Source: Candidatus Omnitrophota bacterium (GTDB lineage Bacteria; Omnitrophota; Gorgyraeia; Gygaellales; Profunditerraquicolaceae). From it: a DNA stretch of 64,000 bases. The DNA lies in contig JBAZJY010000003.1 in NCBI GenBank assembly GCA_041651115.1, positions 3,188 to 67,187 of the forward strand. Direction: 5' to 3'. Below, piece after piece: positions 11,491 to 62,989 of the stretch (positions are counted from its first letter, which is position 1; every line of letters begins with the position of its first letter). A program made the position numbers and the translations under genes. The notes under the pieces were generated by a model. It did no database searches. It had not been told where the DNA came from and saw only the letters and a list, made by a program, of their open reading frames with translations.

Positions 11491-13140
11491 TCAATAAACC
11501 CGGAAAACAATATTCTCTTCGTCTTCATATATAAGCCGGTAATTTTCTTTATAGAGTCTGATGCGGCCGCGCGCCTCTAAAGGAATAAGGTATTTATGTA
11601 TCACGATATATTTGACTTTATTGACGGACAACTGCAGCTTCTGCAGGCTTAAGTCGTTTAATTCCAGGCGGCTGATAAGCGGTTTGCCTACCCGGCGCGA
11701 AATATAGCCCTGGACTATCGGGAGAGCGTGAAAAGTCTGATACATCATATATCTTGCCGCATACATATAATTATAAGCGGGTAAATCCAAAATGCCGAAT
11801 TTTTCAGTATCCTTGCCGATCGTTTTATAGGCAGGCGGACAATATACCGGCGTTATTGCCGCGCATACCGAGTAATAATCGCAGAATAATAACAGGCTAA
11901 CCAGAAAAAATGCCAGACCCCTCCTTATCAACTTAAAGCCATAAGCCCGATACAGGTATTTTATGGCAAAAGAAACTATGACCGCCCAAAACAGATAAAC
12001 GTAAACTATGGCCCGTGACGGTGTATGCATTACCGATAACAGGGGGATGTGTTTCATCAGCGCGTAAGGAAGCGGTATAGAGCTTTGCCAGCCAAATATA
12101 TGCACGGAAGTACCCATGGACAAGGCTAAAAACGGCAGAGCGGCAAGAAAATATTTTGCGGCTTGCTTTTTTATTCCTTTAAACGCCAGAATAACAAGAA
12201 CAATGCTTATAATGCCCAGATAACCGGTCTGTTCCCACGGATTGCCGGTAAACCTGGTGTTTATGTATTGAAATATACTACTGTCGGCAAGCGCATGGTA
12301 CGGATGCGGCACTATCAAGGCCAAAAGGTCAATTACAAATATATCCGGATTACGCAAGCCGGCTGTCTCAGGGTGGTTCAGGCCTACTTTCGCCATCTTA
12401 AACAGCCACGGCCCAAGAATTAATACGGCAGGCAAAAGAGTTAAAACGGATTTTTTTAAGGCATCGGGAAGGAAAAATCTTCTTCTCCTAAAAACCAGGT
12501 ACACATAACCAAGGCAGACAAAGATAACGCCCAAAACAAAATAATAAAGACTGCTGACGCTGTTTAATGCGAAAAACAGGCCGGCAAGAAATAAATCTTT
12601 TTTGGAATTATAACGCAAGGCCTTTATGAAATACAGGACAAAAAACGGTATGAATTGGATCGTTGCCAGCTCTATGTGGTGCAGGGAATGCGCAAAATGC
12701 GAAGGGTTAAAAGCAAAAATAAAGCCCCCGACCGCGGCCGCAAACGGATCCTTTGTCAAATACCTGACTAAAAGGAAAGCGCCGATACCGGAAAGCACGA
12801 ACGTTGACAATATCAGCAGATTATAGGCAAATACCGGGCTTATGAATTGCTTTAATATTACGGCGATAAAAAGGTTATAAAAAGAAAATGCCTGGAATAA
12901 CAATGAACTGCCTTCCGGATAAAATATATAATTTGAAAAGGCCATGCTCCCGGAATGCCCTACAAACACCTTATTCGCCCACCATATATCCCAGAAATGC
13001 GACAGATTGTCTTCCGCAGGCCCGATCAGCGAAAGTGCGATCTCCTTAAGGCAGGGAGAAAAAAAGACCGCAGTAAAAAAACAATATGCCAGGATAGCGG
13101 CTAAAAAAACGTATCTACTGCTGACGGATTTTTTGGGCAT
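11491..13140 (-). CDS. polytopic membrane protein, probable GT-C type glycosyltransferase (YfhO/ArnT-like)
   Basis: More than 10 TM segments plus a ~120 aa C-terminal soluble domain. Sits between a GT-C and a GT2 gene. No sharp motif recognised. Confidence 0.35.
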   Translation of the reverse strand: MPKKSVSSRYVFLAAILAYCFFTAVFFSPCLKEIALSLIGPAEDNLSHFWDIWWANKVFVGHSGSMAFSNYIFYPEGSSLLFQAFSFYNLFIAVILKQFISPVFAYNLLILSTFVLSGIGAFLLVRYLTKDPFAAAVGGFIFAFNPSHFAHSLHHIELATIQFIPFFVLYFIKALRYNSKKDLFLAGLFFALNSVSSLYYFVLGVIFVCLGYVYLVFRRRRFFLPDALKKSVLTLLPAVLILGPWLFKMAKVGLNHPETAGLRNPDIFVIDLLALIVPHPYHALADSSIFQYINTRFTGNPWEQTGYLGIISIVLVILAFKGIKKQAAKYFLAALPFLALSMGTSVHIFGWQSSIPLPYALMKHIPLLSVMHTPSRAIVYVYLFWAVIVSFAIKYLYRAYGFKLIRRGLAFFLVSLLLFCDYYSVCAAITPVYCPPAYKTIGKDTEKFGILDLPAYNYMYAARYMMYQTFHALPIVQGYISRRVGKPLISRLELNDLSLQKLQLSVNKVKYIVIHKYLIPLEARGRIRLYKENYRLIYEDEENIVFRVY

Positions 13141-15270: not shown

Positions 15271-16236
15271 TTATCTGCGATAAAAAATCAGGCAGGATTT
15301 CTTTTTAACTGCGGATACGCCTTTAGGCAGGTCTACGACCGAGCCATCGGGCCGGCTTAAAATCAAATCATTTATTTCTTCGGTATGTTTAAAAGTGAGC
15401 CTGCGCGTGTCGCCGCTTACGCGGCTGAAACTGCGGCGCAGGATGAGATTTTGCATTGCCGGATGCAGCTTGAGGAACCGGGGCAGCCGGATTTTTGTTC
15501 CTAATCGCTTTAGCGCCTTTTGCGCGGCTGCGAAAAGATAATCATAATCATATCCGGCGCTTAAAGCAGTGCTGCTGAGGACTTCCTTGATATTTGCATT
15601 ATATTCTTTTTCCAATAAAGGCAGGAGCCGGTTGCGCAGCCTATTCCTTAAATAAATATCTTCCTTATTTGTTTCGTCAATGCGGAAGCTGATCTTATTT
15701 TTTTTCAGGAATGCTTCTATTTCTTTGCGCTTTACTTCCAAAAGCGGCCGGATAAGCGTAAACCCGGAGAATTTCCTTTTCGGCAGGATCGCTGATAATC
15801 CATAGAGCCCGCTGCCCCGGATCAGCCGCATCAAAACGGTTTCTGCCTGGTCATCAAGGTTATGCCCAAGGCAGATCTTCCTTGCCTTTACCTTGCCGGC
15901 TGCTTCAAATAGGAATTCCAGCCTTGCCTTACGGCAGGCTTCTTCTAACGAAACATTTTTTAGCGTCTTTTTTACATCAAATTTGGCAATTATAGCCGGA
16001 ATGCCAAGCTTTATTGCCAACGCCTTGACAAACTCCGCGTCTTTATGGGAATTCCTGCGCAGCATATGGTCCAAATGCGCAATATACAGCTTAATACACA
16101 GCTCATCCTCAAGGCCCTTAAGCAAATAAAGCATGGCCACAGAATCCGGGCCGCCGGAAACCGCGACAATCACCTTTTCCTTTTTATCGATAAGCCGGTA
16201 TTTTTTTATAGTGTTTCTGACTTTACCGGTGAGCAT
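15271..16236 (-). CDS. tilS: tRNA(Ile)-lysidine synthetase TilS
   Basis: PP-loop VAVSGGPDSVAMLYLL (SGGxDS). CLGHNLDDQAETVLMRLIRG. About 320 aa. Confidence 0.8.
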   Translation of the reverse strand: MLTGKVRNTIKKYRLIDKKEKVIVAVSGGPDSVAMLYLLKGLEDELCIKLYIAHLDHMLRRNSHKDAEFVKALAIKLGIPAIIAKFDVKKTLKNVSLEEACRKARLEFLFEAAGKVKARKICLGHNLDDQAETVLMRLIRGSGLYGLSAILPKRKFSGFTLIRPLLEVKRKEIEAFLKKNKISFRIDETNKEDIYLRNRLRNRLLPLLEKEYNANIKEVLSSTALSAGYDYDYLFAAAQKALKRLGTKIRLPRFLKLHPAMQNLILRRSFSRVSGDTRRLTFKHTEEINDLILSRPDGSVVDLPKGVSAVKKKSCLIFYRR

Positions 16237-16238
16237 AA

Positions 16239-17024
16239 TTACCTGGCAGCGAACATATCTTCAAGCTTGGCTTGGGGATGCCTGTAGCGCTTCCTGCCCG
16301 TAGTATTCTTACCGTATTGGATCGCCTGCTCCGGGCACCAGTGAAGGCAGGCAAGGCATTGCTCGCATTTATGCAGCCATACCGGTTTTCCATCAATCAT
16401 CGTGATGTTGTTTACCGGGCAAACTTTGGCGCAAATAGCGCAGCTGGTGCATTTTTCATTCGCCCAAAAACCCTTGTCCATTGCCGGTATTTTCGGGGAC
16501 ATCAATCTATACAAAATTCCGGAAAAGATCAAGTTAAACAATAACGGGCCTTTTTCAATCAGGCCTTTCTTCCTCTGCCTGACTGCCTCGGCAATTACCT
16601 TGATCTTTTCTTTCTCTTTCTCAAACATACCTTCCTGTTGCTCTGCCGGTATGGCTTCATAAAGCGGCGTATAGTTGCCGGGCATGCGGATACCGTACCC
16701 CAAAGCTAATTCCATTCCAACCGCCTTAAGCGCCTTTGCAGTCTGGATAAGCGAGCCGGCAGCAGTGCCGCCGTAAGTAGCCACGCTAAAAATATACTTA
16801 TTCTTATCGGCGACTAATGTATCGATGAATCGTTTTACGATCAGCGGCATACCGAACATATAAACGGGATAGACAATACCGATGCAATCAGCGTTCACGG
16901 CAGCCTTGCTGTTGATTGCCCTGGCAATACTCACTGCCTCTGCCTGGCCCAATTCGTTAGCCAGATCGCGGGCTACTTTAAGGCAATTTCCGGTCCCTGT
17001 AAAATAAAAAATGGTTGTATTCAT
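16239..17024 (-). CDS. flavodoxin-like / 4Fe-4S ferredoxin fusion protein (EFR1-like)
   Basis: N-terminal FYFTGTGNCLKVARDLANEL flavodoxin fold motif. C-terminal CTSCAICAKVCP and CEQCLACLHWCP are two CxxCxxCxxxCP ferredoxin motifs. Confidence 0.6.
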   Translation of the reverse strand: MNTTIFYFTGTGNCLKVARDLANELGQAEAVSIARAINSKAAVNADCIGIVYPVYMFGMPLIVKRFIDTLVADKNKYIFSVATYGGTAAGSLIQTAKALKAVGMELALGYGIRMPGNYTPLYEAIPAEQQEGMFEKEKEKIKVIAEAVRQRKKGLIEKGPLLFNLIFSGILYRLMSPKIPAMDKGFWANEKCTSCAICAKVCPVNNITMIDGKPVWLHKCEQCLACLHWCPEQAIQYGKNTTGRKRYRHPQAKLEDMFAAR

Positions 17025-17030
17025 AAGTTC

Positions 17031-17125
17031 GTTATTAAGTGGCGGAGAGTGGCCCCGCTTGCGCGGGGCTGCCGTTACTATACGACGCCACTTGTTGCGT
17101 TATTAAGTGGCGGAGAGTGGATTTC
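17031..17125. repeat. two tandem copies (17030-17052 and 17097-17119) of a 23-nt repeat CGTTATTAAGTGGCGGAGAGTGG, each with downstream hairpins. Resemble tRNA 3'-end/att-like fragments.
   Basis: Identical 23-mers at 17030 and 17097. On the minus strand they read ...CCACTCTCCGCCACTTAATAACG, similar to the tRNA 3' end CCTCTCGCCGCCACTAAT at 17200. The CTCCGCC part is complementary to the GGCGGAG 5' end of the partial tRNA at 17388-17426. Confidence 0.5.
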
Positions 17126-17199
17126 CAGCCGCCGTTATTTTAACGTCCGGCGGCGCAGTCCCCTGCTTCTTAGGGGAAAACCACCGGATAACAAATTAG

Positions 17200-17273
17200 T
17201 GGCGGCGAGAGGATTTAAACCTCTGACTTATCGGGTATGAGCCGACTACTCTATCGGGCTGAGTTACGCCGCC
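17200..17273 (-). tRNA. tRNA with CAT anticodon (elongator Met or Ile2/lysidine type). No encoded CCA.
   Basis: Minus strand: GGCGGCG-TA-ACTC-AGCCCGATA-GAGT-A-GTCGG-CTCATAC-CCGAT-AAGTC-AGAGG-TTTAAAT-CCTCT-CGCCGCC-A. It folds as a cloverleaf with a 7/4/5/5 bp stem pattern. The D-loop has GA instead of GG18-19 and the T-loop has U56 instead of C56, an apparent A19-U56 covariation. About 125 nt upstream of tilS in the same orientation. Confidence 0.75.
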
Positions 17274-17387
17274 AAAATCTACTATTATAATCCAGGCGCA
17301 TGTCCTTGCTCGCTTTGCTCGCAAGGATTAATTCGGCCAGCAAACTTATGTTTGCTATCGCTCCACAAGTTTGGGCCTCATTTAAGT

Positions 17388-17426
17388 ATGAGCCGCGTGC
17401 TCTATCAGGCTGAGCTACTCCGCCAA
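17388..17426 (-). pseudogene. tRNA(CAT)-like 5' half fragment (acceptor, D-arm, anticodon stem 5' strand and loop only)
   Basis: Minus strand: GGCGGAG-TA-GCTC-AGCCTGATA-GAGC-A-CGCGG-CTCATAC, then no complementary CCGCG or T-arm. About 80% identical to the 5' half of the intact tRNA 115 nt downstream. Confidence 0.45.
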
Positions 17427-17429
17427 ATT

Positions 17430-18026
17430 TTATTTTTTCTTGCGCAGCTGGTATTCTACATAACCGGCAAGGACTTCCGCTACCTTTATCGGAGGCTGCA
17501 CAACAAAATAACGGCTCATTATCGCGTGGGCGATCTCATGGCCAAGCACTTCTTTTGTAAAATTATCCGGAGAAGTATAAATCGTGTTTAAGTCGGCAAC
17601 AAAAAGCGTATGGTTTTCCGGTTCCCTGCCGAAAAACTCCTTATAAAGGTTGCTCAATTGCGCTTCATTGCGGCAAACCTTGATATTGCCGTGAAAACTG
17701 TAAATATGCATATCCAATATATCGGATACCCTTAAAAAAAGCGTATCGACCATATCGGCAAGGCTATCAGCAGAACCACCCGCATAATCAGAGCCCCATT
17801 TTTCAGTAGAGCCGCCGGTAAGGACTCTATCCTCTACTCCGATGTTCAGCTTTTGGCTAAGCTCCGCAGGGTCAACCTGTGAAGCGTAATACACGGTAAA
17901 ATATTTGCCCTCTACGCGGCGCGCCGAACCAAAACCGTCATCAAAACCATAAACCATTCCGGCTGCGGCAGGCACGAGCAGCAAAACGAGGCATATTATA
18001 CAATAAAACCGGGATTTCGGCATCAA
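17430..18026 (-). CDS. secreted protein with HExxH motif (putative small zincin-like metallopeptidase)
   Basis: Signal peptide (CIICLVLLLVPAAAG). HEIAHAIM motif near C-terminus. Otherwise unrecognised. Confidence 0.4.
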   Translation of the reverse strand: MMPKSRFYCIICLVLLLVPAAAGMVYGFDDGFGSARRVEGKYFTVYYASQVDPAELSQKLNIGVEDRVLTGGSTEKWGSDYAGGSADSLADMVDTLFLRVSDILDMHIYSFHGNIKVCRNEAQLSNLYKEFFGREPENHTLFVADLNTIYTSPDNFTKEVLGHEIAHAIMSRYFVVQPPIKVAEVLAGYVEYQLRKKK

Positions 18027-18736
18027 GATTTAAAATACCGGATTATTCTGTCTAATTCGTCGGATATCCTTTTAATATCGGTTAAGTGGCTACGCTTGTG
18101 CTCCGGAAGCTCACCCTCGGAAAGCTTATCCATTTTTTCTTTCAAAGAACCGAAATTAAGCTTAAGCAAATTGATCTGCTCCCTGTTCTTTGCGATCATG
18201 CTATTGAATGCGTTTGTCACGTCCTGCAGCTGGTCAAGCTTGCGGGTCTGGAATTCCGAACAATAATCGCCTCCCTCTACTGCCTTTAGCACTTTTTTAA
18301 ACCGAAAAAGCGGGCCGGCGATCTTATGCGAAATAAACAATGTCACGGCGATCGTAGCAATGCCGACAATTATCCCTACCACCACTACCGTTTGAACCAG
18401 CACCGGCAGGATAAAGTCTGCGGTGGAACGCACCAGCACGCGCGAATGCACAACCGAAACCGTGGTAGAGCGCATTGCCAGGAGGTAAACGCCGCCTACG
18501 GTAAGGATACCTCCCAAGAAAACCAGGGAGCAGAACTTTAAAATAAAATCCGTCTGGAATTTTTTACCGATAAAATAATTCCCGCGCTTGTAAGTTTTGG
18601 CTGCTTCCGCCATCTTAGTCTCCCTCTGCACAGAAAGTGCGCACCAAACCATTCCAGCAGTAAGCGACACTTGCCCATCCTCTAGGGCAAGGTGCCTATT
18701 GGTTTGGGTGTTATTTATTATCTGCTTTAAGGTCAA
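18023..18736 (-). CDS. two-TM membrane protein with HAMP domain and C-terminal coiled coil (real start probably internal ATG near 18613)
   Basis: TM1, periplasmic segment, TM2 (VVVVGIIVGIATIAVTLFISHKIAGPL), then an LFRFKKVLKAVEGGDY...NAFNSMIAKNRE HAMP-like amphipathic helices. No kinase or MCP output domain. The first 41 codons overlap the upstream gene. Confidence 0.45.
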   Translation of the reverse strand: MTLKQIINNTQTNRHLALEDGQVSLTAGMVWCALSVQRETKMAEAAKTYKRGNYFIGKKFQTDFILKFCSLVFLGGILTVGGVYLLAMRSTTVSVVHSRVLVRSTADFILPVLVQTVVVVGIIVGIATIAVTLFISHKIAGPLFRFKKVLKAVEGGDYCSEFQTRKLDQLQDVTNAFNSMIAKNREQINLLKLNFGSLKEKMDKLSEGELPEHKRSHLTDIKRISDELDRIIRYFKS

Positions 18737-19313
18737 GCAGGTTCAAGTTCAGCTTGGTGTCGGCTTGGCTGCGCAACGAAGCCATCCAATCACCCAGTAT
18801 ACGGCTCTCTTTTACGCGGGTAAGCTCCCATTTGATCTGATTATAGAGCTGATCATAGGGCTTATCGGTTTTCCCCTCTTCTTTTAACTTATTATATACT
18901 GCTTCGATCTCTTTATCCGTAACAACTACCGCTCCGGCAACCTCTTTTGCTTTCCTGTCCAGGGTCAATTTTAAAAGCGACTGCTCCCAGAAGCGCTCCA
19001 CCATTTTAAGGAAGTCCTTATCCCTGTCAATGCCCTTTGCCTCGGCATCCTGGAGGATAACCTTGCGGTTGATCAGCATATTCAGGAATTCCTTCCGGGA
19101 ATCGGGAGTATCGATCCTGCCGTAGGCTGAAAGCTTGAATTCTTCGTCAAATTCTTCCTTTGTAATTTCATAATTATTGATCTTGGCAAGGATCTCTTTG
19201 TTTTTAGGCGCTTGCTTTGCGCATCCGCAGATAACAAATACTACCAATAATAAAAAGGCAATTAATCTCTTCATTGCCGGCTCCTTTCCTGGTAAATTTA
19301 CATCATTATACAA
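18711..19313 (-). CDS. lipoprotein with SurA N-terminal-like chaperone domain
   Basis: MKRLIAFLLLVVFVICGC lipobox-like signal. KINNYEITKEEFDEE...RKVILQDAEAKGI resembles the SurA_N / PpiD N-terminal chaperone module. Confidence 0.45.
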   Translation of the reverse strand: MYNDVNLPGKEPAMKRLIAFLLLVVFVICGCAKQAPKNKEILAKINNYEITKEEFDEEFKLSAYGRIDTPDSRKEFLNMLINRKVILQDAEAKGIDRDKDFLKMVERFWEQSLLKLTLDRKAKEVAGAVVVTDKEIEAVYNKLKEEGKTDKPYDQLYNQIKWELTRVKESRILGDWMASLRSQADTKLNLNLLDLKADNK

Positions 19314-19352
19314 TACCTCGCTAGAATTTACTATTAAAAAATCATGCGGGTT

Positions 19353-22300
19353 TTACTTCAAAAACGGCAGCAAGCCTTCATGGCCGAGGATGTTTATCCG
19401 GCCGTCAATAAACTCATAGGCGTCTTCTTCAAGTATGAACTGATCAAAAGCAGAATAATCAGCGCTTACCAGAGGATGATAGAAATAAACCACCGGCATA
19501 AGGGTAAAAGTATTTATCCGGTATAAAGCCATATCTGTCTCGCTAAGCACCGGCTTAAGCAGCGCGTCAGCAGTTGCCAATTGAGAGATAACCGCAGGTA
19601 ATGATCCGGTAATATTAAAATTACCCGATGTTATAGCACTTAAACCTGCCGCAGAAGCAGTCAGCGCATAGCCGGTACCTGGCAGGTTAATGAATAAGTC
19701 GCCAAAAGTAACTACTCCGCCTGAAGCAGTGTGGGTGAGCGTTCCGGAAAGAGCTGCTCCGGAAGGATTAATGCCAAGTGCAATACTCACGGAAGTCGCA
19801 TTATCCGTGCTGGCAGTATTGCCGAATTGATCTCTAAGCGTAATGGTTATTGCCGGCGCGATCAACGTATTAAAATCAACGCTGGACGGCTGCTGGCTAA
19901 ATACCATTATAGCCGCAGCAGCAGGGTTCACGGTTACTGCCAAAGGAACCGATGTAGTAACCGCACCCTGCGTTGCGGAGATCGCGGCGCTTTCCGCGTT
20001 ATATAATACTGCGCTGCCTCCGCTGGTTGAAACGCCGTTAGTAAAAGTAACCACGGTATTTGCGCCAAAACTTATTGCTGCGCCGTTCTTATCCGTGACC
20101 GTAGGAACGAAGCTGCCAATAGAATTTGCTCCGCTAAAGACCAGGGTTTTGTCTCCGGAGTAAGACAAGGCTGTGCCGCCGACCCCGTCAATTGCCGTGA
20201 TCGTCAGGAGATTGGCTGCCCCGGCATTCTGTGAGCCGGAGCCGGAGACTACGAAATGGTCCACCAGGTTCCAGTTAGTATTATTGCCGCTGTCTTTTGA
20301 GCTTGTTGCCGTTATCACAGAAGCGTTGATATTATTTGAATCTTTTACATCTACAAAAGAAACACTGCGGCTTCCTTGCGGATCGATCAGCCATTGCGAG
20401 CCGCTTACTGAACTGCGCAGGATGATCAGGTTACCCGATGTGCCGGTAAGTGTCAACGCTCCGTTAATAGTCAGCGTTGTGCCTGCGGTAAAGGTAACCT
20501 GATTACCCGCGGATACGGTAAAGCTTCCGGTAACAAGCTTATCGCTTAACGAGGCAAACGTCGCCTTGTTGGTATTGGTATCATTAATGCTCAAATTAAA
20601 GTAGTCCGTTGCCCCGAAATCTTTGATCGTAATGGTTTCCGCGATATTCCTGCCTACATATTCCCAGGTTCCGGAGTCAGTATCATTCACTGTCCAGGAT
20701 ACGGTTTCTATTCCCTGCAGCCGCAAGGTACCGTTATTCACGAAAGAAGTGGTAGTGGTAATATTAAATCCGTTAAGATAAAGCACCCCCGAGCTGATCG
20801 TCAGGGTGCCGTTTATATCCAGGTTATTATTGATCAGCGTAACTACCGCTCCGCCGGATTTATTAATCACTAAATCCTGGAAATCGTCGCCTGCAGCAAC
20901 GCCGCCTGAATCAAGCGTAGAATTAATTGAACCGTCAAACGTAACTATGCTATCCTGGGAATTAAACGTTGCGGAATTTGACCAATTACCGGCAACGTTA
21001 ATACTAAAATCGGACGCACTTGTATTAAGTGTGCCGCCTGAGATCGTCAAATTGCCGTCTACATCAAGATTACCGGCAAGGGTTGAGGTACCACCGGTGA
21101 ATTCAATATTATCAAATGCCATAGTGGTTGAGGTCCCCTGTCCGTCTATAGTATTCGCGCCGTTAAAGACCACAAGCGAATTATTGGTAGTAGCGTCCAC
21201 TGTTCCCGCGATATAAGTCCAGGCTCCTGCGCCTGCCCCATTTATGCGGATCGTACCTGCCAGCGTTAAAGTGCCTGCGCTCTTATTAATCGTCAAATCA
21301 GGCAGCTCGCCGGCGCTGACCGTAGCATTGCCGGTAAAAAGCTGGTTGGCAGATCCCGTGATCTGAAGCAGCGCAGAGCCGCCATCAGTCAAACTTCCCT
21401 GGATCAGATCTCCCTGCACATTAATAGTTCCGGTATTGATCGTTCCATCGGTATAGGTAAAAGTACCGGTTATAGTAAGCGTAGTGCCGCTTGCGATTAC
21501 CCTGGTCCCGGCATTATTGAAAGTCACATTATTCAGGGTATGCGAACCCGTAATAGTCATACCGCCGTCAAATACCAGCGTGCTTGAGCCGGTATTCAGC
21601 GTCCCTGCCGTATATGTCCAGGCATTCGCGCCCTGCCCATTGGTACGGATAGTGCCGGCGAGGAAAAGCGTACCGCTGGCCTTGTTGATCGTAACATCGG
21701 GTAATTCGCCTGCCGTTGTAGTGGCGCTGCCGGTAAAAGTCTGATCAGAAGCGCCGTCAATAATCAGCGTAGCTGTGCCTCCGTCAAACGTGGATAATTG
21801 AACAATATTCCCGCGCGCGGAAACTGTGCCGGAATTAATACCGCCGTCGGTCAACGTAAGAGTTCCCATAATAATAATCGTATCTGCTGCAGCTACTGTC
21901 TTGTTTGCGGTAGAATTAAAATTTACATTGTGGAATGTTTCGGTGGTAAGCACATTGATCGTGGCGCCTGCGCCGCTAAAAGTAACGCTGCTGGTACCCT
22001 CGTTAAACGCGCCTGCGCCGGAAATAGTAAAATTATTGGCAATGTCAAGATTAGCTGAACCCGCGTTAAATATGCCTGTGCCTGAAGCAGCAAAGTTATT
22101 CGCTATGTTTATATTGCCGGTACCTGCATTGAAAGTGCCGCCGGAAACGCTAAAATTACGGCTTACTGTCAAAGTTTGACCGCCTAAATTAACCGTACCT
22201 CCTGCCTGGCTGAAATCCCTGACTGAAAGCGAACGCTCAAAAGTAATAGTGCCTGTATAACCCGAACCGATCAACAGGTCGCGGATCGTGCCGGCAAAGG

Positions 22301-24035
22301 CTGCGTCTACAATAGAATCTTTGGTTGAGGTAGCGTCAAAGGTCGCGTCAGTAGTAGAGATTGGCAGGGTATTGCCTGACCAGTTATCCGCGTCAGACCA
22401 GTTATTGGTAGTACCGCCGCCGTCCCAGGTAGGGTCAATTTCAAAATTAACGTTGTTTCCCGCGTCAACGCCGATCGGGATAATAACGGTATTTAACGCG
22501 TAGGCATCACGGATATTCACTCTTTCAAGGAGATATCCTGCAGCCTGAAGGTCCAGATACCAATATTCGCCTGCCTGGCTTGAACGCAGTTTAATGAAAA
22601 ATTCTTCAGGGCCGATATCAACAGCGCCGATTATACTCAAGCTTCCTTTAAAAGTATATGTCTTTCCCGCTTCAAAATATATTTCTTTATCGGGGATCGC
22701 TAAATTGAGATTATAAAAAGTAATATTTCCGTAAAGATATACGGGTTCATTTCCTAAAAAGCTTACTTCTGCTGCCTCTAATGTAAGGCTTGAGCCTTTA
22801 TCATAGAGGATCGCGCCGAATCCATCCGGAGGACCGCGCAGCAACACACTTGTGCCGATGCCTAAGCTTTCCAATATATCTATGTTGCCTAATGACCGGA
22901 TAAAATGAATATGCTCCGCGTCAATTGCGATAGGAAAACCTGCTGCGCCAAGGCTCCTGGCAGTGATATTTACTTCACTTGCCCGGATAACCACAGCTAA
23001 AGTTGCCACGTCAGCTAAAGGATCGCTGTTTAAAGTCGTCTTTATGTTTTCAGCTTCAATAACTACTTCTCCGCCAACAGCTTCTATTAAGCCATCCTGG
23101 ATTACGTCTGCTGCCTTTATATAAACCGCTCCGGCCCCTGCTTCTAACGCCCCGGCATTAATCACCGGAGCGCCTTCGGCTACCAGCTCAATTATCCCAT
23201 TATTGCTTACAAGGTTAGTTGCCTGGATTATACCTGAATTATTGATCGCGTGATCAAAGATATGATTCAAAGCTTTGACGGCTAAAATTACTTTGCCTCC
23301 CGGATTAAGGATTGTCCCGCTATTGCGAACGGCCGAGCTTAATTTTTCGCCGTCAAAGCCAAATATTTCTTCTTTTACAGCTTCATCGATCACTACGGAA
23401 ATCATGCCGGCAGTATCAAGATTAAGGGTGATCTTCTCTCCGGCTGCCAGGACTACCGAGCCTAATGTCGTTTCAATGGTGCCGGCATTAGCTACCGCAG
23501 AGCCCAATAAAACCGCCTGTCCGCCTTCCCTTATTTTTATGTAGCCGTTATTTATTACCGGCTTGCCTACTTTATCTACCCATTTAGTAAAAATATAATT
23601 TGAAGAAAGGAAATCGCTGTTTTGTATATTTAATGTGGAAGCGATAATGCCTGCGGCATCTATCCTTGCCAATGGGCCGATATTTATGCCGTTGGGATTG
23701 ATCAGATAAATTATGCCGTTTGCGCTAAGCGTGCCGAATATGCCGCTTATTTGGTCGCCCAAAACGCGGTTCAAGGCAGCAGAGGTTGCGGACGGCTGAT
23801 AAAAATAAACCGATTCGCCGGCTGCAATGCTAAAACTGTTATAATCAATGATTAATTTATCGGAAGGAGTGGTGATCTTAAGGATGTTCGGTTCGGAGCG
23901 GTCAAAACTGGCGCTACCCTCAATTATGCTTTCTCCTTCAGGAAGGGCAAAAGCAGAATTCAGGCTGATAAGCCAAAGGCTTACCAGTGCCAGTATCCAT
24001 ACGCTTATCTTTTTAACTCTATGCACCCTCAACAT
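19353..24035 (-). CDS. two-partner secretion exoprotein TpsA (filamentous-haemagglutinin family), 1560 aa, beta-helical with internal tandem repeats
   Basis: Signal peptide. N-terminal TPS domain (IIDYNSFSIAAGESVYFYQPSATSAALNRVLGDQISGIFGTLSANGIIYLINPNGINIG) with the NPNGI motif. Long Gly/Thr/Asn-rich beta-helix region with two ~133-aa tandem repeats. C-terminal 50 aa shared with the 24980..26581 protein. Confidence 0.8.
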   Translation of the reverse strand: MLRVHRVKKISVWILALVSLWLISLNSAFALPEGESIIEGSASFDRSEPNILKITTPSDKLIIDYNSFSIAAGESVYFYQPSATSAALNRVLGDQISGIFGTLSANGIIYLINPNGINIGPLARIDAAGIIASTLNIQNSDFLSSNYIFTKWVDKVGKPVINNGYIKIREGGQAVLLGSAVANAGTIETTLGSVVLAAGEKITLNLDTAGMISVVIDEAVKEEIFGFDGEKLSSAVRNSGTILNPGGKVILAVKALNHIFDHAINNSGIIQATNLVSNNGIIELVAEGAPVINAGALEAGAGAVYIKAADVIQDGLIEAVGGEVVIEAENIKTTLNSDPLADVATLAVVIRASEVNITARSLGAAGFPIAIDAEHIHFIRSLGNIDILESLGIGTSVLLRGPPDGFGAILYDKGSSLTLEAAEVSFLGNEPVYLYGNITFYNLNLAIPDKEIYFEAGKTYTFKGSLSIIGAVDIGPEEFFIKLRSSQAGEYWYLDLQAAGYLLERVNIRDAYALNTVIIPIGVDAGNNVNFEIDPTWDGGGTTNNWSDADNWSGNTLPISTTDATFDATSTKDSIVDAAFAGTIRDLLIGSGYTGTITFERSLSVRDFSQAGGTVNLGGQTLTVSRNFSVSGGTFNAGTGNINIANNFAASGTGIFNAGSANLDIANNFTISGAGAFNEGTSSVTFSGAGATINVLTTETFHNVNFNSTANKTVAAADTIIIMGTLTLTDGGINSGTVSARGNIVQLSTFDGGTATLIIDGASDQTFTGSATTTAGELPDVTINKASGTLFLAGTIRTNGQGANAWTYTAGTLNTGSSTLVFDGGMTITGSHTLNNVTFNNAGTRVIASGTTLTITGTFTYTDGTINTGTINVQGDLIQGSLTDGGSALLQITGSANQLFTGNATVSAGELPDLTINKSAGTLTLAGTIRINGAGAGAWTYIAGTVDATTNNSLVVFNGANTIDGQGTSTTMAFDNIEFTGGTSTLAGNLDVDGNLTISGGTLNTSASDFSINVAGNWSNSATFNSQDSIVTFDGSINSTLDSGGVAAGDDFQDLVINKSGGAVVTLINNNLDINGTLTISSGVLYLNGFNITTTTSFVNNGTLRLQGIETVSWTVNDTDSGTWEYVGRNIAETITIKDFGATDYFNLSINDTNTNKATFASLSDKLVTGSFTVSAGNQVTFTAGTTLTINGALTLTGTSGNLIILRSSVSGSQWLIDPQGSRSVSFVDVKDSNNINASVITATSSKDSGNNTNWNLVDHFVVSGSGSQNAGAANLLTITAIDGVGGTALSYSGDKTLVFSGANSIGSFVPTVTDKNGAAISFGANTVVTFTNGVSTSGGSAVLYNAESAAISATQGAVTTSVPLAVTVNPAAAAIMVFSQQPSSVDFNTLIAPAITITLRDQFGNTASTDNATSVSIALGINPSGAALSGTLTHTASGGVVTFGDLFINLPGTGYALTASAAGLSAITSGNFNITGSLPAVISQLATADALLKPVLSETDMALYRINTFTLMPVVYFYHPLVSADYSAFDQFILEEDAYEFIDGRINILGHEGLLPFLK

Positions 24036-24103
24036 CTTAAGCTCCTGTCTGATTGTATCCCCTTTTTTCTACACTATTTAGATGCTTCAGGAGCTAAAAT
24101 GTT

Positions 24104-24886
24104 TCAGGATTTTTTGCGGATAAAATCCGCTATTTTCACCTCCAATTCAATCGGCAAGTCACGGCATTCCAAGAACTTAGCGACTTTGATCGCTTTAGAG
24201 TATTTGCTCAGGAATAATTTGCATGGCCGGCAGTCTTTAATATGCCTATCAAAGGCTTTTTTGCGGGTCTTGCCTAAAGAACCGCGGCTATAGTTATATA
24301 CGAACCCTTCCCAGATGCTGCAGCGGGGGTTTTCCTCTTCATTTTTCTCCAGTTTATCCTTAAAATAATCCTTTGTTTCCGCGGCAAGCATCATCTCTGC
24401 CCTGCGCAGCCTTGTCCTGAATGATGCTTCCTTAAGCTTTAAAACCGCAGCCGCGGCTTCACCCGGCATACGTTCAACATAGTGCAGCACCAAAGGCATA
24501 CGGTATTCAATCGGCAGCTGCTTGATCGCGTTATCAACCCGCTGCCGGAATTCGACATCAAGCGCCTGTTCATCAGGCATTTTTGACCAGTTAACGAACA
24601 GCCCGGAAAGCTCCTTCTTTGTCCCGTCTTTAAAACCGTCAATCAGCTTGAAGCGGCTTGAACGCTTTCGCAGATACATCAACGCTTCATTATAGGCGAT
24701 CTTATATATCCAGGTAGAAAGGTATTCGCGGTTCTTCAGCTCTTTAATGTTATCAATGATCTTCACGAATACGGACTGCACCACGTCTTCAGCATCAGTC
24801 TGATTCCTGGTAATGCTCAAGGCAAGGCCGTAGATCTTATTTTTATAGTTCTTGAAGATCTCTTCTATTTTGATTCGTGGCTTCAT
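24104..24886 (-). CDS. ECF-type sigma-70 factor fused to a C-terminal zf-HC2 anti-sigma domain
   Basis: Region 2 (DAEDVVQSVFVKIIDNIKELKNREYLSTWIYKIAYNEALMYLRKR). Region 4 (LPIEYRMPLVLHYVERMPGEAAAAVLKLKEASFRTRL). Then FDRHIKDCRPCKLF, the HxxxCxxC anti-sigma zinc finger. No TM segment. Confidence 0.7.
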   Translation of the reverse strand: MKPRIKIEEIFKNYKNKIYGLALSITRNQTDAEDVVQSVFVKIIDNIKELKNREYLSTWIYKIAYNEALMYLRKRSSRFKLIDGFKDGTKKELSGLFVNWSKMPDEQALDVEFRQRVDNAIKQLPIEYRMPLVLHYVERMPGEAAAAVLKLKEASFRTRLRRAEMMLAAETKDYFKDKLEKNEEENPRCSIWEGFVYNYSRGSLGKTRKKAFDRHIKDCRPCKLFLSKYSKAIKVAKFLECRDLPIELEVKIADFIRKKS

Positions 24887-24929
24887 AATACCTAATTATA
24901 TACCGCGTTAAAGAAAATGCTACAAAAAA

Positions 24930-24975
24930 AAGAGGGGACGTTTCTAAGGAAACGTCCCCTCTTTTTTAAGAGCTT
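24930..24975 (-). terminator. rho-independent terminator after the 533-aa tpsA gene
   Basis: Perfect hairpin AGAGGGGACGTTTC-(loop)-GAAACGTCCCCTCT flanked by an A-tract on one side and a T-tract on the other. On the minus strand it is followed by TTTTTTTT. Confidence 0.65.
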
Positions 24976-24979
24976 AGTT

Positions 24980-26581
24980 TTACTTTATGCCTTCAAGGAT
25001 CGGAAGCAAGCCCTGATGGCCTTTGATGTTGAGCGAACCTTCAATGAAGTCATAGGCGCCTTCTTCAAGGACAAATTCATCAAACCCGTTCATTGCCGAA
25101 GCAGTGATCGGATGATAGAAATATACCAATCTCGGGTCAACCGCATTATACTGCCAAACGGCAAACTGCTCGTTATAAGGCAAGCCTTCCTTGCCCCACA
25201 AATCGCTCGCAGAAACCCGGGGAGTAGGATCCGGCTCAGGCGGTAAATCCGGGTAGGTGGCAAAGCTTGAGGCAAAACGTATTACAGCATCATCAAAATC
25301 CTGATCCCCGCCGTTGGGATAATCCTCAAACCCATATATGACTCCAGTCTCTTTTACATGATCCTGTTTTGAACCGCTGTTAAGGGAAGATTCTTCATAC
25401 CAGATATAATCATTCTTCCCGTTCTGGAAAATACAATACAGCTTAAACTCAGTGGCATCTAAAGAAGTCTGACCTGTTCCAGAACCACTCTTGATATCTT
25501 TTCCCGGAAGAGCCTGAGCAAAAGGCACGCGCGTAAGCACACCATTATCATAATAGTAATAGCCGAGTTCAATCAATTTAAAACCCCTTGAACCGCTCAA
25601 ATACTCCCATGAAAACACGCCTAAGCTATCTATCTCGCTGCTGTTAAAGCCGGAAACCAGCATGCCGGTATTTGTGACGTCATCAATTATCGGGTCGCCT
25701 TCTGCCACCAACTCGATCACGCCGTTATGATTTACAAGGTTGATTGCCTGAATAACTCCGGTGTTATTAATCGCATAATCAAAAATACCATTAAGGATCT
25801 CAGCATTTAAAATAACTTTCCCGCCGTCAGCACGGATCACACCGGAATTTTTTATCGCACATTTCATACCCAGTACGTCATTCTTCACCACATCATCGAT
25901 GACTACGGATATCGTGCCCGCAGGATCAAGGTTAAGGGTCATTTTTTCTCCTGCTGCCAAAACTACGGTGCCGAGATCAGCAATGATCACCCCGCGGTTT
26001 TCAACTGCCTGCGACAAAAGGCAGACATAACCGCCGTTATTAACATTAATATTGCCTTCGTTAATAATGGAGCCGTCTACTCCGACCTTTTTTAAAAAAT
26101 TATACGCCCCAAGACGGAAATCCGCATCGCTAATCTCAAGGGTAGAAGCAACTAATGCGGGGGCGTCAACGCGTGAACCTGCGCCAAAGATTACACCATT
26201 AGGATTAACTACAAAGATCTTTGCGGTTTCAGAATAGAGCGTACCGAGGAAATTCGTAGGGCTGCCGTTTGCAATACGGTTTAAAACTGTTGAGCCTCCG
26301 TAAAAATTTACCGCTTGGCCTGAATCAGTATCAAAGGTACCCCAATTAATAATTGCGTTGGCTGAAGGATTAGTAATCACGACATCAACTTTAGTATCGG
26401 GAACAGTAGTGACAACAGCTAAACCACTGGTAATATCATCTCCACTTGCCCCGGACGGCAAACAAAACGCCAATGCAGGAGTAATTAAAGTAAGGATTAT
26501 TGCAGCTAAGATTCTTTTATGACGGGCCATTTTGAAGGTCTCCTTATAGTTATGAAAACGCTTTCTTTTTAGCACGAACAA
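24980..26581 (-). CDS. second TpsA-family exoprotein, 533 aa (TPS domain + distinct middle + shared C-terminal tail)
   Basis: Signal peptide. TPS domain (IINWGTFDTDSGQAVNFYGGSTVLNRIANGSPTNFLGTLYSETAKIFVVNPNGVIFG). Region through NHNGVIELVAEG collinear with the large TpsA. Last ~50 aa (VYFYHP...FDEFVLEEGAYDFIEGSLNIKGHQGLLP) about 60% identical to the large TpsA C-terminus. Confidence 0.75.
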   Translation of the reverse strand: MFVLKRKRFHNYKETFKMARHKRILAAIILTLITPALAFCLPSGASGDDITSGLAVVTTVPDTKVDVVITNPSANAIINWGTFDTDSGQAVNFYGGSTVLNRIANGSPTNFLGTLYSETAKIFVVNPNGVIFGAGSRVDAPALVASTLEISDADFRLGAYNFLKKVGVDGSIINEGNINVNNGGYVCLLSQAVENRGVIIADLGTVVLAAGEKMTLNLDPAGTISVVIDDVVKNDVLGMKCAIKNSGVIRADGGKVILNAEILNGIFDYAINNTGVIQAINLVNHNGVIELVAEGDPIIDDVTNTGMLVSGFNSSEIDSLGVFSWEYLSGSRGFKLIELGYYYYDNGVLTRVPFAQALPGKDIKSGSGTGQTSLDATEFKLYCIFQNGKNDYIWYEESSLNSGSKQDHVKETGVIYGFEDYPNGGDQDFDDAVIRFASSFATYPDLPPEPDPTPRVSASDLWGKEGLPYNEQFAVWQYNAVDPRLVYFYHPITASAMNGFDEFVLEEGAYDFIEGSLNIKGHQGLLPILEGIK

Positions 26582-26776
26582 AAGAAAGTTTACCCAATGG
26601 AAACGGCTTTGTCAAGGCGATATTTTAATGAGGCCATGGCTTATTGAGCGAATAAAAACGAGCGAAAATAAGCCATTGGGCCGAATTGAGATCCTTAAGT
26701 TTTGATTTAGCGAAATCCCGCAGCTGCGAGTAGATTTCTACAAAATCTACGAGCTGCTTGCTGTCGGGATCTATCC

Positions 26777-28480
26777 CTAGAACGTTTTGGAAACTTCCGC
26801 CCAGGTTTGCACGCCTTTTCCGTCAGACGGCTTCTGGTCCAGAGGCCAGGCAAATTCTACGCGCGCGCTGAAATCTTCCGGTAAATTAATGCGCAAACCG
26901 CATCCCGCGCCTCTTAAGGTCTTATTCTTCTGTTCTCCTGCCTGCGGCCTTCTTAACCTGACATTTGCCCAGTCATAAAAAGTAACGATCCTTACCGCAT
27001 CATAGATTTTTGCCTTTGAAAGCGGGAATCCGATGGACTTCGGCACAAAATACGGCGGGATTGACCATTCCCAGGTCATGGAATAACCATTATCGCCTAC
27101 TGCTTCCGCAGCCGGATAACCGCGCACGTTGACAATGCTGCCGATCTGAAACTGTTCTGTAGAAGTAAGGATATTGGGGGTAAGCTGTATCTGGTTTTTC
27201 CAGTATATGGAAGAATCAAACGGCAGTTTCTGGCGATGTAAAAGGTTTATTATCTCTTTGGTAAACTCCCCGCCTGCGCCGTCGCGGGACGCGCGGGTAT
27301 CGCGCTTCTTCAAGCCTGCCATAATATCCGGGATGCCATAATCAAATTCTGCCATAAGCAGCGTGCGGCTTAACCTGGTGGTAACATCCCAGTCAAAGCC
27401 TATGCGGCTGATGCGCAGCCGGTCGCGGCTGGTTTCCTCTCCTGCCTGGAAATTAAAAACATCCTTGTAATCAAAACCAAGGTTTAAGACTAAATTGCTA
27501 TTCTCGTTATTGACTAATATCTGCTGGGCATAAACGCCATAGATCCGGCTCTTGCCGCGGACATTCAGGTCCTCAAATTCTTTTTGCAGCTTGATCCGTG
27601 AGTTTGCGGCTACAAAGCCGATATTCAGGTCTCTGGTTACCGGCAGGATATAACGGCCGCTCAACAAAACATAATTTTCGCCTTCCGAGCCCTGATAATT
27701 AACCTCCAGGCTGTCGTCAAAGCCTAAAAGGTTATTATGCGTAAGCGTAGTTTTAAAACGATTGTAATTAATATAGCGCGAGCCAAAATTATCCCAGGCA
27801 AGGCCCAAATGTATGGGCAGGCGGTCCTTTACCTCTACCAGCACATCGGTTGTCCCGGGGTCTTTGCCCGGAGCAATGACTGCCTTAGCGTTACGGTCTG
27901 CCTGTTCATTGATCAGGCTTAAGCCTTCGCGCAATTTTTCGTAATTAAAAGGCTGCCCCTTTTTAAGCGCGATCTTACGCTGATACAGGGAAGATTTAAA
28001 GAACCGGTTACCTTTTATTTCTACGTCGCCGGTAATTCCTTCCAGGACTTTTACTTCAAGGTTTCCGCTTTCAATTTTTTGCGGGGGCAGGTAGGCGCGG
28101 GAAGTAACAAAGCCTTTCCTGCGGTAGATATCGGTGATCATGTCTACCATCTTCTGCATATCCTTAAGCATAAGCTCTTTGTTTTTGAATTCCGCGGTAA
28201 CCGCATTGATCTCGTCTTCCGTAATAAGCGTAGCGCCGGTTACGGTAATACTCGTAACCATGACTTTTTCGGTTGACTCCGGGAGCCGGGGCTGCGCAGC
28301 CTGAGGCTCTTCCTCAATTTCCGCCTTTGGGCTGGGCTTATCAAACTTTTCCTGCAACCGTATTTCCTTGTCAATCTTACGCTGGGACGTAGAAATCGTG
28401 CCCGCCTCGTCAGCGGCATATACAAAACCAAACGCAAAGATAAAAACTAAACCTAAAAGAATCGCGGGCGCCTTTTTCAT
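26777..28480 (-). CDS. TpsB outer-membrane transporter (ShlB/FhaC family; POTRA domains + 16-strand beta-barrel)
   Basis: Start assigned to the internal ATG at 28480 (MKKAPAILLGLVFIFAFGFVYA signal peptide; AGGAGG SD 8 nt upstream; ATGA overlap with the upstream stop). POTRA-like VTSITVTGATLITEDEI...DIYRRKGFVTSRAYLPPQKIESGNLEVKVLEG. Ends ...WAEVSKTF with the aromatic terminal residue typical of OMPs. Confidence 0.8.
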   Translation of the reverse strand: MKKAPAILLGLVFIFAFGFVYAADEAGTISTSQRKIDKEIRLQEKFDKPSPKAEIEEEPQAAQPRLPESTEKVMVTSITVTGATLITEDEINAVTAEFKNKELMLKDMQKMVDMITDIYRRKGFVTSRAYLPPQKIESGNLEVKVLEGITGDVEIKGNRFFKSSLYQRKIALKKGQPFNYEKLREGLSLINEQADRNAKAVIAPGKDPGTTDVLVEVKDRLPIHLGLAWDNFGSRYINYNRFKTTLTHNNLLGFDDSLEVNYQGSEGENYVLLSGRYILPVTRDLNIGFVAANSRIKLQKEFEDLNVRGKSRIYGVYAQQILVNNENSNLVLNLGFDYKDVFNFQAGEETSRDRLRISRIGFDWDVTTRLSRTLLMAEFDYGIPDIMAGLKKRDTRASRDGAGGEFTKEIINLLHRQKLPFDSSIYWKNQIQLTPNILTSTEQFQIGSIVNVRGYPAAEAVGDNGYSMTWEWSIPPYFVPKSIGFPLSKAKIYDAVRIVTFYDWANVRLRRPQAGEQKNKTLRGAGCGLRINLPEDFSARVEFAWPLDQKPSDGKGVQTWAEVSKTF

Positions 28481-36179: not shown

Positions 36180-36183
36180 TTAC

Positions 36184-62954: not shown

Positions 62955-62989
62955 CTGTTCCTCCTATTTTTTGTTTTTAATTAATAGAC

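Follow-up and report, generated by a model that had tools for sequence, protein, structure and literature searches.

The subject of this work is a tRNA(CAU) locus in a 64-kb stretch of DNA from a Candidatus Omnitrophota bacterium (the window, by which the whole of that stretch is meant throughout), where an intact tRNA gene upstream of tilS is enclosed by fragments of a second allele of the same tRNA and by short hairpin elements. The orphan 5' half of the second allele is joined at its broken end to a covarying spacer, here termed X-P3-L (an X core, a P3 hairpin and an AT-rich linker L), which leads directly into the intact gene. This layout is recurrent across Omnitrophota and is no one-off scar, and copies of the X core are dispersed at sites distant from any tRNA. 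The interpretation that we favour, with slightly less than even confidence, is that miniature, non-autonomous modules of one insertion or repeat family target tRNA loops, in combination with replacement of the tRNA gene. Partial tRNA genes normally flag kilobase-scale islands; here, only a small covarying hairpin element separates the copies. The parts of the locus are given below in the order in which they are read on the minus strand, and related loci, genomes and contigs are denoted by L numbers.

17386-17424 (-), orphan 5' half of tRNA(CAU), type A (GGCGGAG...), standard positions 1-38; assigned from a 39/39 match and as direct repeat D1
17329-17385 (-), X core: outer helix P1 (UUAAAU..GAG..GCC / GGC..CGA..AUUAA) around hairpin P2; assigned from covariation, covariance model R1 (95.4 bits) and fold
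17304-17328 (-), P3 hairpin (UCCUUGC...GCAAGGA), which follows X in all copies; assigned from alignment A1 and fold
17274-17303 (-), AT-rich linker L (CAUGCGCC...UAUAAUAGUAGAUUUU), touching G1 of the intact tRNA; assigned from sequence, with homologous linkers elsewhere
17200-17273 (-), intact tRNA(CAU), allele type B (GGCGGCG...); assigned by ARAGORN, Rfam, cloverleaf fold and tilS linkage in relatives
17125-17199 (-), trailer Y: GGUGGUUU (type-A positions 49-56), hairpin UCCCCUAAGAAGCAGGGGA, CUGCGCCGCC and hairpin GCCGCCG/CGGCGGC; assigned from sequence and fold
17098-17124 (-), first type-A 3'-end copy, AAAUCCACUCUCCGCCAC (57-73), with a 9-nt trailer; contains 23-mer copy 1 (17098-17120)
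17053-17097 (-), spacer of the 68-nt tandem unit: AAGUGGCG, UAUAG, GGCAGCC and GNRA hairpin CCCCGCGCAAGCGGGG; assigned from fold and promoter scan
17030-17052 (-), second type-A 3'-end copy (60-73 plus trailer), 23-mer copy 2; the flavodoxin/4Fe-4S start codon follows 5 nt further on

Fragments of a second tRNA(CAU) allele

The relatives hold two alleles of tRNA(CAU), which are linked by compensatory changes: type A starts with GGCGGAG and has the pair G10-C25, and type B starts with GGCGGCG and has A10-U25. In the window, the intact gene is of type B, and the orphan 5' half and both 3' repeats are of type A. The preliminary description of this DNA had stated that the 3' repeats pair with the orphan half and not with the intact tRNA, and the allele assignment confirmed this. 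It had also described the upstream piece as a degenerate 5' half of a second CAT tRNA; the half is real (17424 to 17386, minus strand), but it is not degenerate, being identical at 39 out of 39 positions to the first 39 nt of tRNA(CAU) in L003, L005, L087 and L111. It breaks off exactly after the anticodon loop CUCAUAC, at C38. The two tandem 23-nt repeats resembling a tRNA 3' end were present as described and are both exact: the 23-mer CGTTATTAAGTGGCGGAGAGTGG occurs at 17030-17052 and at 17098-17120, with 0 copies expected in shuffled sequences, and the upstream 3' copy extends further, to AAATCCACTCTCCGCCAC (17124-17107), which corresponds to type-A tRNA positions 57-73. A third copy was not found in the 64-kb window, even with up to 3 mismatches. 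No distal copy of the 23-mer, which was to be sought elsewhere as an attachment (att) site, and no further tRNA fragment are present in the 64 kb.

The type-A pieces lie in their original order, positions 1-38 upstream of the intact gene and positions 49-56, 57-73 and 60-73 downstream of it. Because the orphan half, the trailer segment and the 3' repeats are all of type A, nearly the whole type-A gene is, on the evidence of the sequence, present in ordered pieces with the type-B gene nested inside. In L003, the closest relative with available DNA, an intact type-A tRNA is located 24 nt before the same flavodoxin-tilS-MscS genes, and the last 3' repeat of the window occupies the exact place of the 3' end of this tRNA. 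The 3' half of the window's intact gene was neither cleanly type A nor cleanly type B, and no single ordered history accounts for every tRNA fragment in the window. Contig L141 parallels the window: its orphan is of type A and its gene of type B, a 3' copy carrying the matching U67 lies downstream, and tilS comes after it. In the case of L144, type-B fragments surround a third allele. In the window, in L141 and in L144, the orphan fragments of the locus match one another and not the live gene. A type-A 5' part truncated at position 33 (..GCGGCTC|TCCTCGCAAG) was also seen in an Omnitrophota metagenome-assembled genome (L065, 25-62, minus strand); this truncation lies 24 nt from the contig end and represents either another breakpoint or an assembly edge.

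The downstream 3' ends are organised into tandem units with a common plan, in which a tRNA 3' end is followed by a trailer, GCAG(U/C)CC and a GNRA-type hairpin before the next 3' end begins. Within the window's unit, AAGUGGCG in the spacer can pair with the preceding CGCCACUU of the 3' end, and the fold of the unit had a z score of -4.1. The unit is homologous to those of L143 (AGUGGCGU..UAUAG..GGCAGYCC-hairpin-GCCACUCUCCGCC), in which the UAUAG box is conserved. The period of the units was 68 nt in the window and L143, 69 nt in L138, 49 nt in L076 and L122, 79 nt in L134 and L139, and 109 nt in L020. The sole promoter-like site upstream of flavodoxin-tilS, TTAATA-18-TATAGT (17106-17077, minus strand), which is a consensus match only, is located inside the 68-nt unit. 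Trailer Y, which separates the intact gene from the first 3' copy, folded with z = -3.0, and homologous trailers were identified in L020, L141, L144 and L132.

Repeats of this kind could be chimeric joins made by a metagenome assembler, and tRNA-fragment loci do break short-read assemblies: contigs L020, L076, L133, L136, L140, L142 and L146 end inside repeats or repeat units, and contig L002 terminates inside the intact tRNA, at about position 46. Nevertheless, we regard an artefact as extremely improbable. The whole structure is internal to a 198-kb contig in the window's assembly, the same architecture was obtained from many projects and assemblers, and L002, a Logan assembly of the same organism from an independent run (SRR8542065), reproduced base for base a stretch that begins near tRNA position 46, takes in both 23-mers and runs on into the following gene.

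The spacer X-P3-L and its recurrence

When the region was compared with Omnitrophota loci by BLAST, L063 and L076 also proved to carry an orphan 5' half, and 3' ends were repeated in L020 and L076. In the window, L063 and L076 alike, the orphan breaks off at C38 and TTA comes next. Scanning of metagenomes with a pattern for this C38|TTA junction (GATAGAGYANNCGGCTCATACTTA) yielded 18 contigs, which, together with L063 and L076, makes at least 20 beyond the window. A complete tRNA(CAU) was found 77-184 nt beyond the junction in 13 of the 18 contigs, the remaining 5 stopping at a contig edge; the corresponding gap in the window is 112 nt. No genes or cargo were present between the orphan and the intact tRNA in any of the 18 junction contigs, and two orphan units were arranged in tandem in L133, L136 and L146. 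Orphan and X were wholly absent from L003, L005, L007, L009, L055, L085, L087, L111 and L115, where tRNA and tilS are kept. A one-base insertion in the D arm (CTCAG changed to CTTGAG, CTTAAG or CTTTAG) was observed in the orphans of L134, L135, L137, L139, L142, L143, L144, L146 and L149 and never in intact genes; as a shared character, it suggests an old orphan lineage that would have been only partly homogenised by gene conversion.

A decayed tandem tRNA array had been offered in the preliminary description as one origin of the locus; it would have been produced by two or three local duplications, random deletion in the outer copies and gene conversion. Tandem orphan units and tandem 3' units do exist, and orphan halves follow the sequence type of their neighbour in most loci, both of which favour such an array. 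However, the breakpoint C38|TTA is identical in every lineage and is always fused to the same covarying element, and the type-A 3' fragments lie downstream, not upstream, of the intact type-B gene, so that the arrangement is nested and not serial. The array leaves both the uniform boundary and the position of these 3' fragments unexplained. Moreover, the same module and layout occur at a different tRNA, tRNA-Gly (see below), and we judge this origin to be quite improbable.

The X core opens with TTA immediately after C38. Fifteen distinct spacers share one plan: P1 with an asymmetric GAG/CGA internal loop, P2 inside it, then P3 (UCC...GGA), followed by 'CC-UG' and an AT-rich linker that reaches up to G1 of the complete tRNA. 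In alignment A1, 98.4% of the cells were paired and 12 of the 23 pairs had changed on both sides; when the partners were slid, pairing was 23-44%. None of 500 shuffles reached the observed values for cells paired, for pairs and cells changed on both sides or for the covariation score, whereas the number of further pair types was reached by 29 of the 500. We compiled the alignment ourselves from sequences found with the junction pattern, so that its ascertainment leans towards intact junctions; the covarying pairs fall outside the pattern. RNAalifold favoured a rival hairpin, in which tRNA positions 30-36 (GGCUCAU) pair with AUGAG at the start of X, and this GGCUCAU/AUGAGCC pairing and P1 are mutually exclusive. 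The linker carries a TATAAT box 10 nt before the tRNA gene, a putative promoter by its sequence. Rfam was searched over 16900-17550 with permissive E-values and over six related loci with gathering thresholds; apart from tRNAs and one group I intron in L148, nothing matched.

The conserved fold also raises the alternative of a functional RNA, in which the orphan half and X-P3 upstream, together with the 3' mimics and hairpins downstream, would be selected parts of transcripts. Possible roles include a leader and trailer for RNase P/Z-type mRNA-tRNA-mRNA processing, a promoter or terminator for flavodoxin-tilS, and a sensor of tRNA-Ile2 acting through AUGAGCC, which is complementary to positions 30-36. 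In line with such a function, X and the orphan half have stayed conserved, with compensatory changes, in lineages of 55-65% TilS identity, and the two mutually exclusive pairings are present; about half of the related loci, however, lack orphan and X yet keep tRNA and tilS, and the copy number ranges from 1 to 3 or more. The orphan 5' and downstream 3' strands are complementary to each other though the live gene differs (A6-U67 in the window and L141; B-type orphans in L144), and every 3' mimic has its complement (CGCCACUU/AAGUGGCG) and a GNRA hairpin behind it within the strongly folded unit (z = -4.1). Conversely, many orphans carry the extra D-arm base, and the degenerate acceptor strand of the L134 orphan is uncompensated by its 3' mimic. 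The promoter-like TTAATA-18-TATAGT in the unit upstream of the operon and the start of many units directly after the stop codon of the upstream gene also fit a transcribed role; against this stand the occurrence of X cores in both orientations with respect to the flanking genes, including a module that is antisense beside tRNA-Gly, and the lack of any Rfam family match in the searches described above. We consider a functional RNA rather unlikely, though the strongest of the competing explanations.

Covariance model R1, which was built from the spacer, recovered all of the known copies, at 43-99 bits. There are three X copies within the 64-kb window, of which the following two are distant from any tRNA.

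26616-26698 (+), X core copy between the TPS-domain gene and the ShlB/FhaC gene, antisense to both; R1 35.1 bits, E = 5e-6
36104-36192 (-), X core copy directly after the stop codon of the bactofilin/HTH gene; R1 28.2 bits, E = 2e-4

In L009, the model identified an inverted pair of X cores in the tilS-ftsH spacer, at 5964 (+) and 6096 (-), and in L148 it identified two copies beside tRNA-Gly. The L148 segment 13009-13343 comprises an intact tRNA-Gly(TCC), a reverse-oriented X-P3-linker, a duplicate of positions 54-73 of this tRNA and a forward X core. On the bottom strand, it mirrors the plan of the window (a fragment running from the terminus to a 7-nt loop, X-P3-linker and complete gene), with the junction ACTCGAAC|TTAA versus CTCATAC|TTAA in the window. 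This was the only non-CAU tRNA found with the X layout, and there the X core lies inside the T loop. In L143 (1249-3200, tRNA on the plus strand), small cassettes ahead of tilS are flanked by three copies of X and six of the 3' end. The cassettes encode a zinc-ribbon protein, and a nucleotidyltransferase-like protein of 167 amino acids (aa) whose partner has 52 aa; in its overall order, the region is reminiscent of a cassette array. The X copies that flank the cassettes have short anticodon-arm fragments on both sides and belong to the window's X subfamily, not to that of L143's first unit, and the third X sits within a tRNA copy (24-38 | X | about 39-76). Viral contigs probed with the junction, the X loop and the P1/P3 junction gave 0, 0 and 12 matches, respectively, and all 12 were chance matches according to the covariance model.

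Possible integration scars, proposed insertion modules and known systems

Upstream of the locus, a block of approximately 11 kb separates the DAGK gene (28477-29238) from the tRNA. This TPS block (17430-28530) contains ShlB/FhaC, two TPS-domain proteins (533 and 1560 aa), an ECF sigma factor, a SurA-like protein, a HAMP protein and, nearest to the tRNA, the following gene.

17430-18026 (-), gene for a 198-aa protein without a Pfam match, last of the TPS block; its stop codon lies 5 nt before the orphan half

A homologue of the 198-aa protein with 45% identity occupies the same position in L007. In L003, L005, L009, L020 and L143, the acetyl-CoA-synthase genes and DAGK lie directly upstream of the tRNA; relative to these five lineages, the TPS block is therefore an insertion. 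The DAGK open reading frame (ORF) runs without a frameshift into part of a POTRA_2 domain (aa 170-218), and the insertion junction may lie there. The proposal that a TPS island begins at the tRNA was correct insofar as the block sits where relatives have DAGK beside the tRNA, but no tRNA-derived repeat marks its far end, and in L007 the tRNA beside the same block is undisturbed.

These observations bear on the explanation by a classical integrase scar, according to which an island or prophage entered the tRNA gene and was later excised or decayed, with the TPS block as the island. Tyrosine integrases reportedly use the anticodon loop, the T loop or the 3' end as sublocations (a scheme attributed to Williams 2002), and the boundaries found here fall at C38 in the anticodon loop and, towards the T loop and 3' end, at A57/58 and 60/61. 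The duplicated segment spans from a loop to the gene terminus (G1, or 73 and beyond), as would be expected of an element that has to restore the gene. The location of the TPS block where relatives have DAGK adjoining the tRNA and the small accessory genes between the repeated tRNA/X sites of L143 point in the same direction, and partial next to complete tRNA copies are the usual signature of integration (PMC9897764). In the known cases, such partial copies border integrated elements of 9 to more than 100 kb with an integrase, and the orphan is normally the 3' part distal to the gene (PMC9897764). In contrast, the gap of 112 nt in the window, and of 77-184 nt in 13 other contigs, consists of a conserved hairpin element without an ORF, and the orphan is a 5' half located upstream of the gene, the reverse of the usual order. 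The 3' repeats are tandem duplications that include the trailer and form no core site around foreign DNA. No tRNA-derived repeat was found at the far end of the TPS block or elsewhere in the 64 kb, there was no evidence of tRNA fragments serving as att sites of the block, and in L007 the same block adjoins an intact tRNA free of fragments. The similarity to tRNA-gene islands and prophages (Reiter 1989; Williams 2002; van der Gulik et al. 2023, PMC9897764) thus comprises the breakpoints at loops and 3' ends and the part duplicated from loop to terminus; the differences comprise the small size of the element (77-184 nt of conserved hairpins), the upstream 5' half and the recurrent spacer, to which tandem arrays, core dispersal and a second tRNA target are added as further departures from the integration rule. 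The integration or excision scar put forward in the preliminary description was not supported, given that the junction and the conserved spacer recur in at least 20 further contigs with no integrase or cargo between the copies, and we consider it unlikely.

In the interpretation that we favour, the modules would be structure- or site-specific elements of Omnitrophota, presumably mobile, that enter 7-nt tRNA loops 3' of a CTCRWAC-like motif by means of a presumed enzyme. X-P3-L adjoins the orphan half exactly where the anticodon loop ends on its 3' side, and hairpin modules adjoin the T loop and the 3' end. Each module would either bring along a replacement for the tRNA or tRNA segment that it displaces or be rescued by one, and the cell would thereby keep one intact gene beside an orphan fragment. 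Unequal crossing-over would then build the tandem arrays, and gene conversion would hold the orphans close to the live gene. In the window, the resident type-A gene would have been the one that was broken, and a type-B copy would have been installed to work in its place. The anatomy of the locus, its recurrence, the covariation of X, the dispersal of the X core and the allele mismatch are observations, and mobility, target motif, enzyme and order of events belong to the interpretation.

Several points weigh against this interpretation. Neither presence/absence polymorphism nor a circular form was seen, and integration through DNA circles of 140-180 bp is implausible on physical grounds. No transposase, integrase, recombinase or RAYT was detected with Pfam among 26 of the window's 52 ORFs of at least 90 aa. 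The target motif draws on two tRNAs only, tRNA(CAU) and tRNA-Gly, and the junction pattern demanded an intact junction, leaving decayed versions unsampled. The solitary X cores have no tRNA fragment with them, and X may therefore be nothing more than an ordinary REP-like hairpin caught at this locus. The conservation of X and the orphan over approximately 60% TilS identity fits a selected function at least as well as selfish spread. Furthermore, the tRNA-Ile2 identity of the intact gene, which is discussed below, is a likely one only, judged by its tilS linkage and elongator features.

The X core shares with REP/REPIN sequences, MITEs and IS200/IS605-derived PATEs the form of a short imperfect palindrome with an asymmetric (GAG/CGA) loop. 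Like REP-like elements, it is located in intergenic spacers in both orientations, occurs as an inverted pair (L009), often follows stop codons and is conserved within a lineage. In contrast to REP/REPIN systems, no RAYT or Y1 transposase was found among the same 26 ORFs. To our knowledge, REPs fused to tRNA loop boundaries with a duplicated tRNA segment have not been reported, and our literature search returned nothing comparable. The locus also resembles disrupted tRNA genes with group I or archaeal bulge-helix-bulge (BHB) introns, in that the interruption is at the anticodon loop (38/39, indistinguishable from the canonical 37/38), P1 brings the ends of the insert together, and the third X of L143 is flanked by tRNA on both sides. 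It differs from them in the length of X-P3 (about 80-130 nt) and in having an uninterrupted gene next door. A group I or BHB intron was rejected: X-P3 has no catalytic core, no Rfam match and, by inspection, no consistent BHB motif, and X-P3-L is followed by a complete tRNA and by no 3' exon, with the exception of the third X of L143. A split tRNA of the Nanoarchaeum type was likewise rejected, as positions 39-48 are absent from the downstream fragments, which cover only 49-56 and 57-73, and the locus also has an intact gene. A genuine group I intron (RF00028, 95.9 bits, 12711-12937) was observed in the anticodon loop of a tRNA-Tyr(GTA) in L148 (12685-12995, without an ARAGORN call), and it looks quite different from X-P3. 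VapC toxins cut initiator tRNA at 38/39, and the match with the C38 boundary was treated as a coincidence.

The novelty of the locus lies in a variant of tRNA-gene-associated repeats and REP/MITE-like elements, to which a phylum-wide elbow swap in one tRNA is added. Two broader readings can be stated as a pair, which we hold to be possible but doubtful. X-P3-L may be an undescribed class of miniature elements that recognise 7-nt tRNA loops (CTCRWAC^) as folded DNA or RNA and regenerate the segment from the loop to the mature terminus; alternatively, the orphan half with X and the ACCA-ended 3' mimics may be co-evolving functional tRNA-derived RNAs that govern how tRNA-Ile2 and tilS are processed or expressed. 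For X-P3-L, an RNA-mediated route would even be conceivable, since the repeat ends coincide with mature tRNA ends. A mobile X element would represent a new way for selfish DNA to inhabit an essential gene and spare the host; a functional one would represent a new tRNA-derived regulatory or processing module. Orphan halves of this kind can mislead both tRNA annotation and island finders.

The intact tRNA, its elbow pair and the neighbouring genes

ARAGORN called one tRNA in the 64-kb window, a tRNA(cat) at 17199-17273 (minus strand), and the Rfam tRNA model (RF00005) scored it at 62.5 bits against a gathering score of 29. The intact gene at 17200-17273, with the D and T loops claimed for it, was thereby verified: as read off the Rfam alignment, the D loop is AGCCCGAUA (G18 A19) and the T loop is UUUAAAU (U54-U55-U56). 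The minimum-energy fold is a clean cloverleaf (z = -3.7), and no CCA is encoded. The established criteria for an initiator tRNA are textbook knowledge, and the gene has no initiator features: G1-C72 is paired, 11-24 is C-G, 29-41 is C-G and not G-C, and only two of the initiator's three G-C pairs are present. It carries A73, U12-A23 and C29-G41, which we take to match E. coli tRNA-Ile. The other CAU tRNAs of the genome are located outside the window.

The tRNA had been placed 125 nt upstream of tilS, which proved to be incorrect; the tilS start is 964 nt from the tRNA, and a flavodoxin/4Fe-4S gene, 176 nt downstream of the tRNA, intervenes.

16239-17024 (-), gene for a Flavodoxin_5 + 4Fe-4S dicluster protein between the tRNA and tilS; assigned by Pfam and synteny, with L003 alike
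15271-16236 (-), tilS, short form, 321 aa; PP-loop and TilS substrate-binding domains by Pfam, with no long C-terminal extension

The window's TilS is 100% identical to an NCBI 'Candidatus Omnitrophota bacterium' TilS, and the next nearest TilS sequences are 58-68% identical. Exactly one tRNA(CAT), located a few hundred nt upstream of tilS, was found in each of the loci of four relatives with such TilS sequences. A tRNA(CAU) was identified upstream of tilS in L003-L010, in the GTDB genomes L055, L085, L087, L111, L115 and L122 and in the metagenome contigs L134, L135, L141, L143, L145, L147 and L148; tilS was found downstream of tRNA(CAU) in every long-enough locus, with TilS identity down to 39%. 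The GTDB genomes were scanned with a D-arm 15-mer, which produced mostly noise: among the matches listed, 110 of 120 were chance matches in coding DNA, and 10 were inside tRNAs (nine tRNA(CAU) and one unrelated tRNA-Pro). Because of this linkage and the lack of initiator features, the gene is likely tRNA-Ile2 and the substrate of the TilS encoded approximately 1 kb downstream, which upholds the candidacy suggested earlier. It shares with tRNA-Ile2 (lysidine-34) the CAU anticodon, an elongator-type body and a chromosomal linkage with tilS that is conserved across the phylum. It differs in an anticodon loop that finishes in C38, in the elbow pair A19-U56 (26 of 27 relatives), which is elsewhere a near-universal G19-C56, and in that its TilS is of the short (type II) form. 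Short TilS proteins lack the second C-terminal domain, which contacts the acceptor, and the D loop can serve as a TilS identity element in another species (PMC12514573). As the window's TilS has no second C-terminal domain, the acceptor stem is unreadable through that domain. Irrespective of its surroundings, the window's tRNA(CAU) itself is an ordinary essential gene.

The elbow pair 19-56 of the window's tRNA remains Watson-Crick, as A19-U56. Of the 27 tilS-linked tRNA(CAU) genes, which represent 21 distinct sequences, A19/U56 occurs in 26 (with G18) and G19/C56 in one (L144, with G18-G19), and no gene is mixed; this substantiates the description of A19-U56 as a compensated change, and the covariation is real. 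This is what a Watson-Crick tertiary pair predicts, with thin statistics, given that L144 is the only switch. In contig L148, tRNA-Thr, tRNA-Gly and tRNA-Tyr have normal GG/TTC loops, and A19-U56 is thus not genome-wide there; it appears to be a trait of this one tRNA across Omnitrophota. The literal term 'A19-U56' did not occur in any of 8 million papers. Omnitrophota appear to have exchanged the almost invariant G19-C56 for A19-U56 in one tRNA, the TilS substrate, and the swap offers a natural experiment on readers of the elbow, for which the short TilS, the synthetases separating Ile2 from Met, RNase P and the ribosome are candidates.

Some minor observations were made in the course of the analysis. 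A viral contig (L011, IMG/VR UViG_3300042889_000900) carries a tRNA-Phe(GAA) with the D loop AGCCUGAUA and the T loop UUUAAAU (A19-U56), next to a tRNA with the anticodon UUA, which ARAGORN labelled 'Stop' (207-281 and 506-583, minus strand). A tRNA-Pro(CGG) of Nitrosomonas sp. Nm33 (L097) has the same D loop AGCCUGAUA (A19) and a normal T loop, UUCAAAU (C56), an uncompensated combination; as A19 faces C56 in this tRNA, A19 alone does exist elsewhere. 'Candidatus Aceula' is a genus of Omnitrophota. A full-length bacterial RNase P RNA of class A is encoded in the window at 62985-63320 (minus strand; 195 bits).

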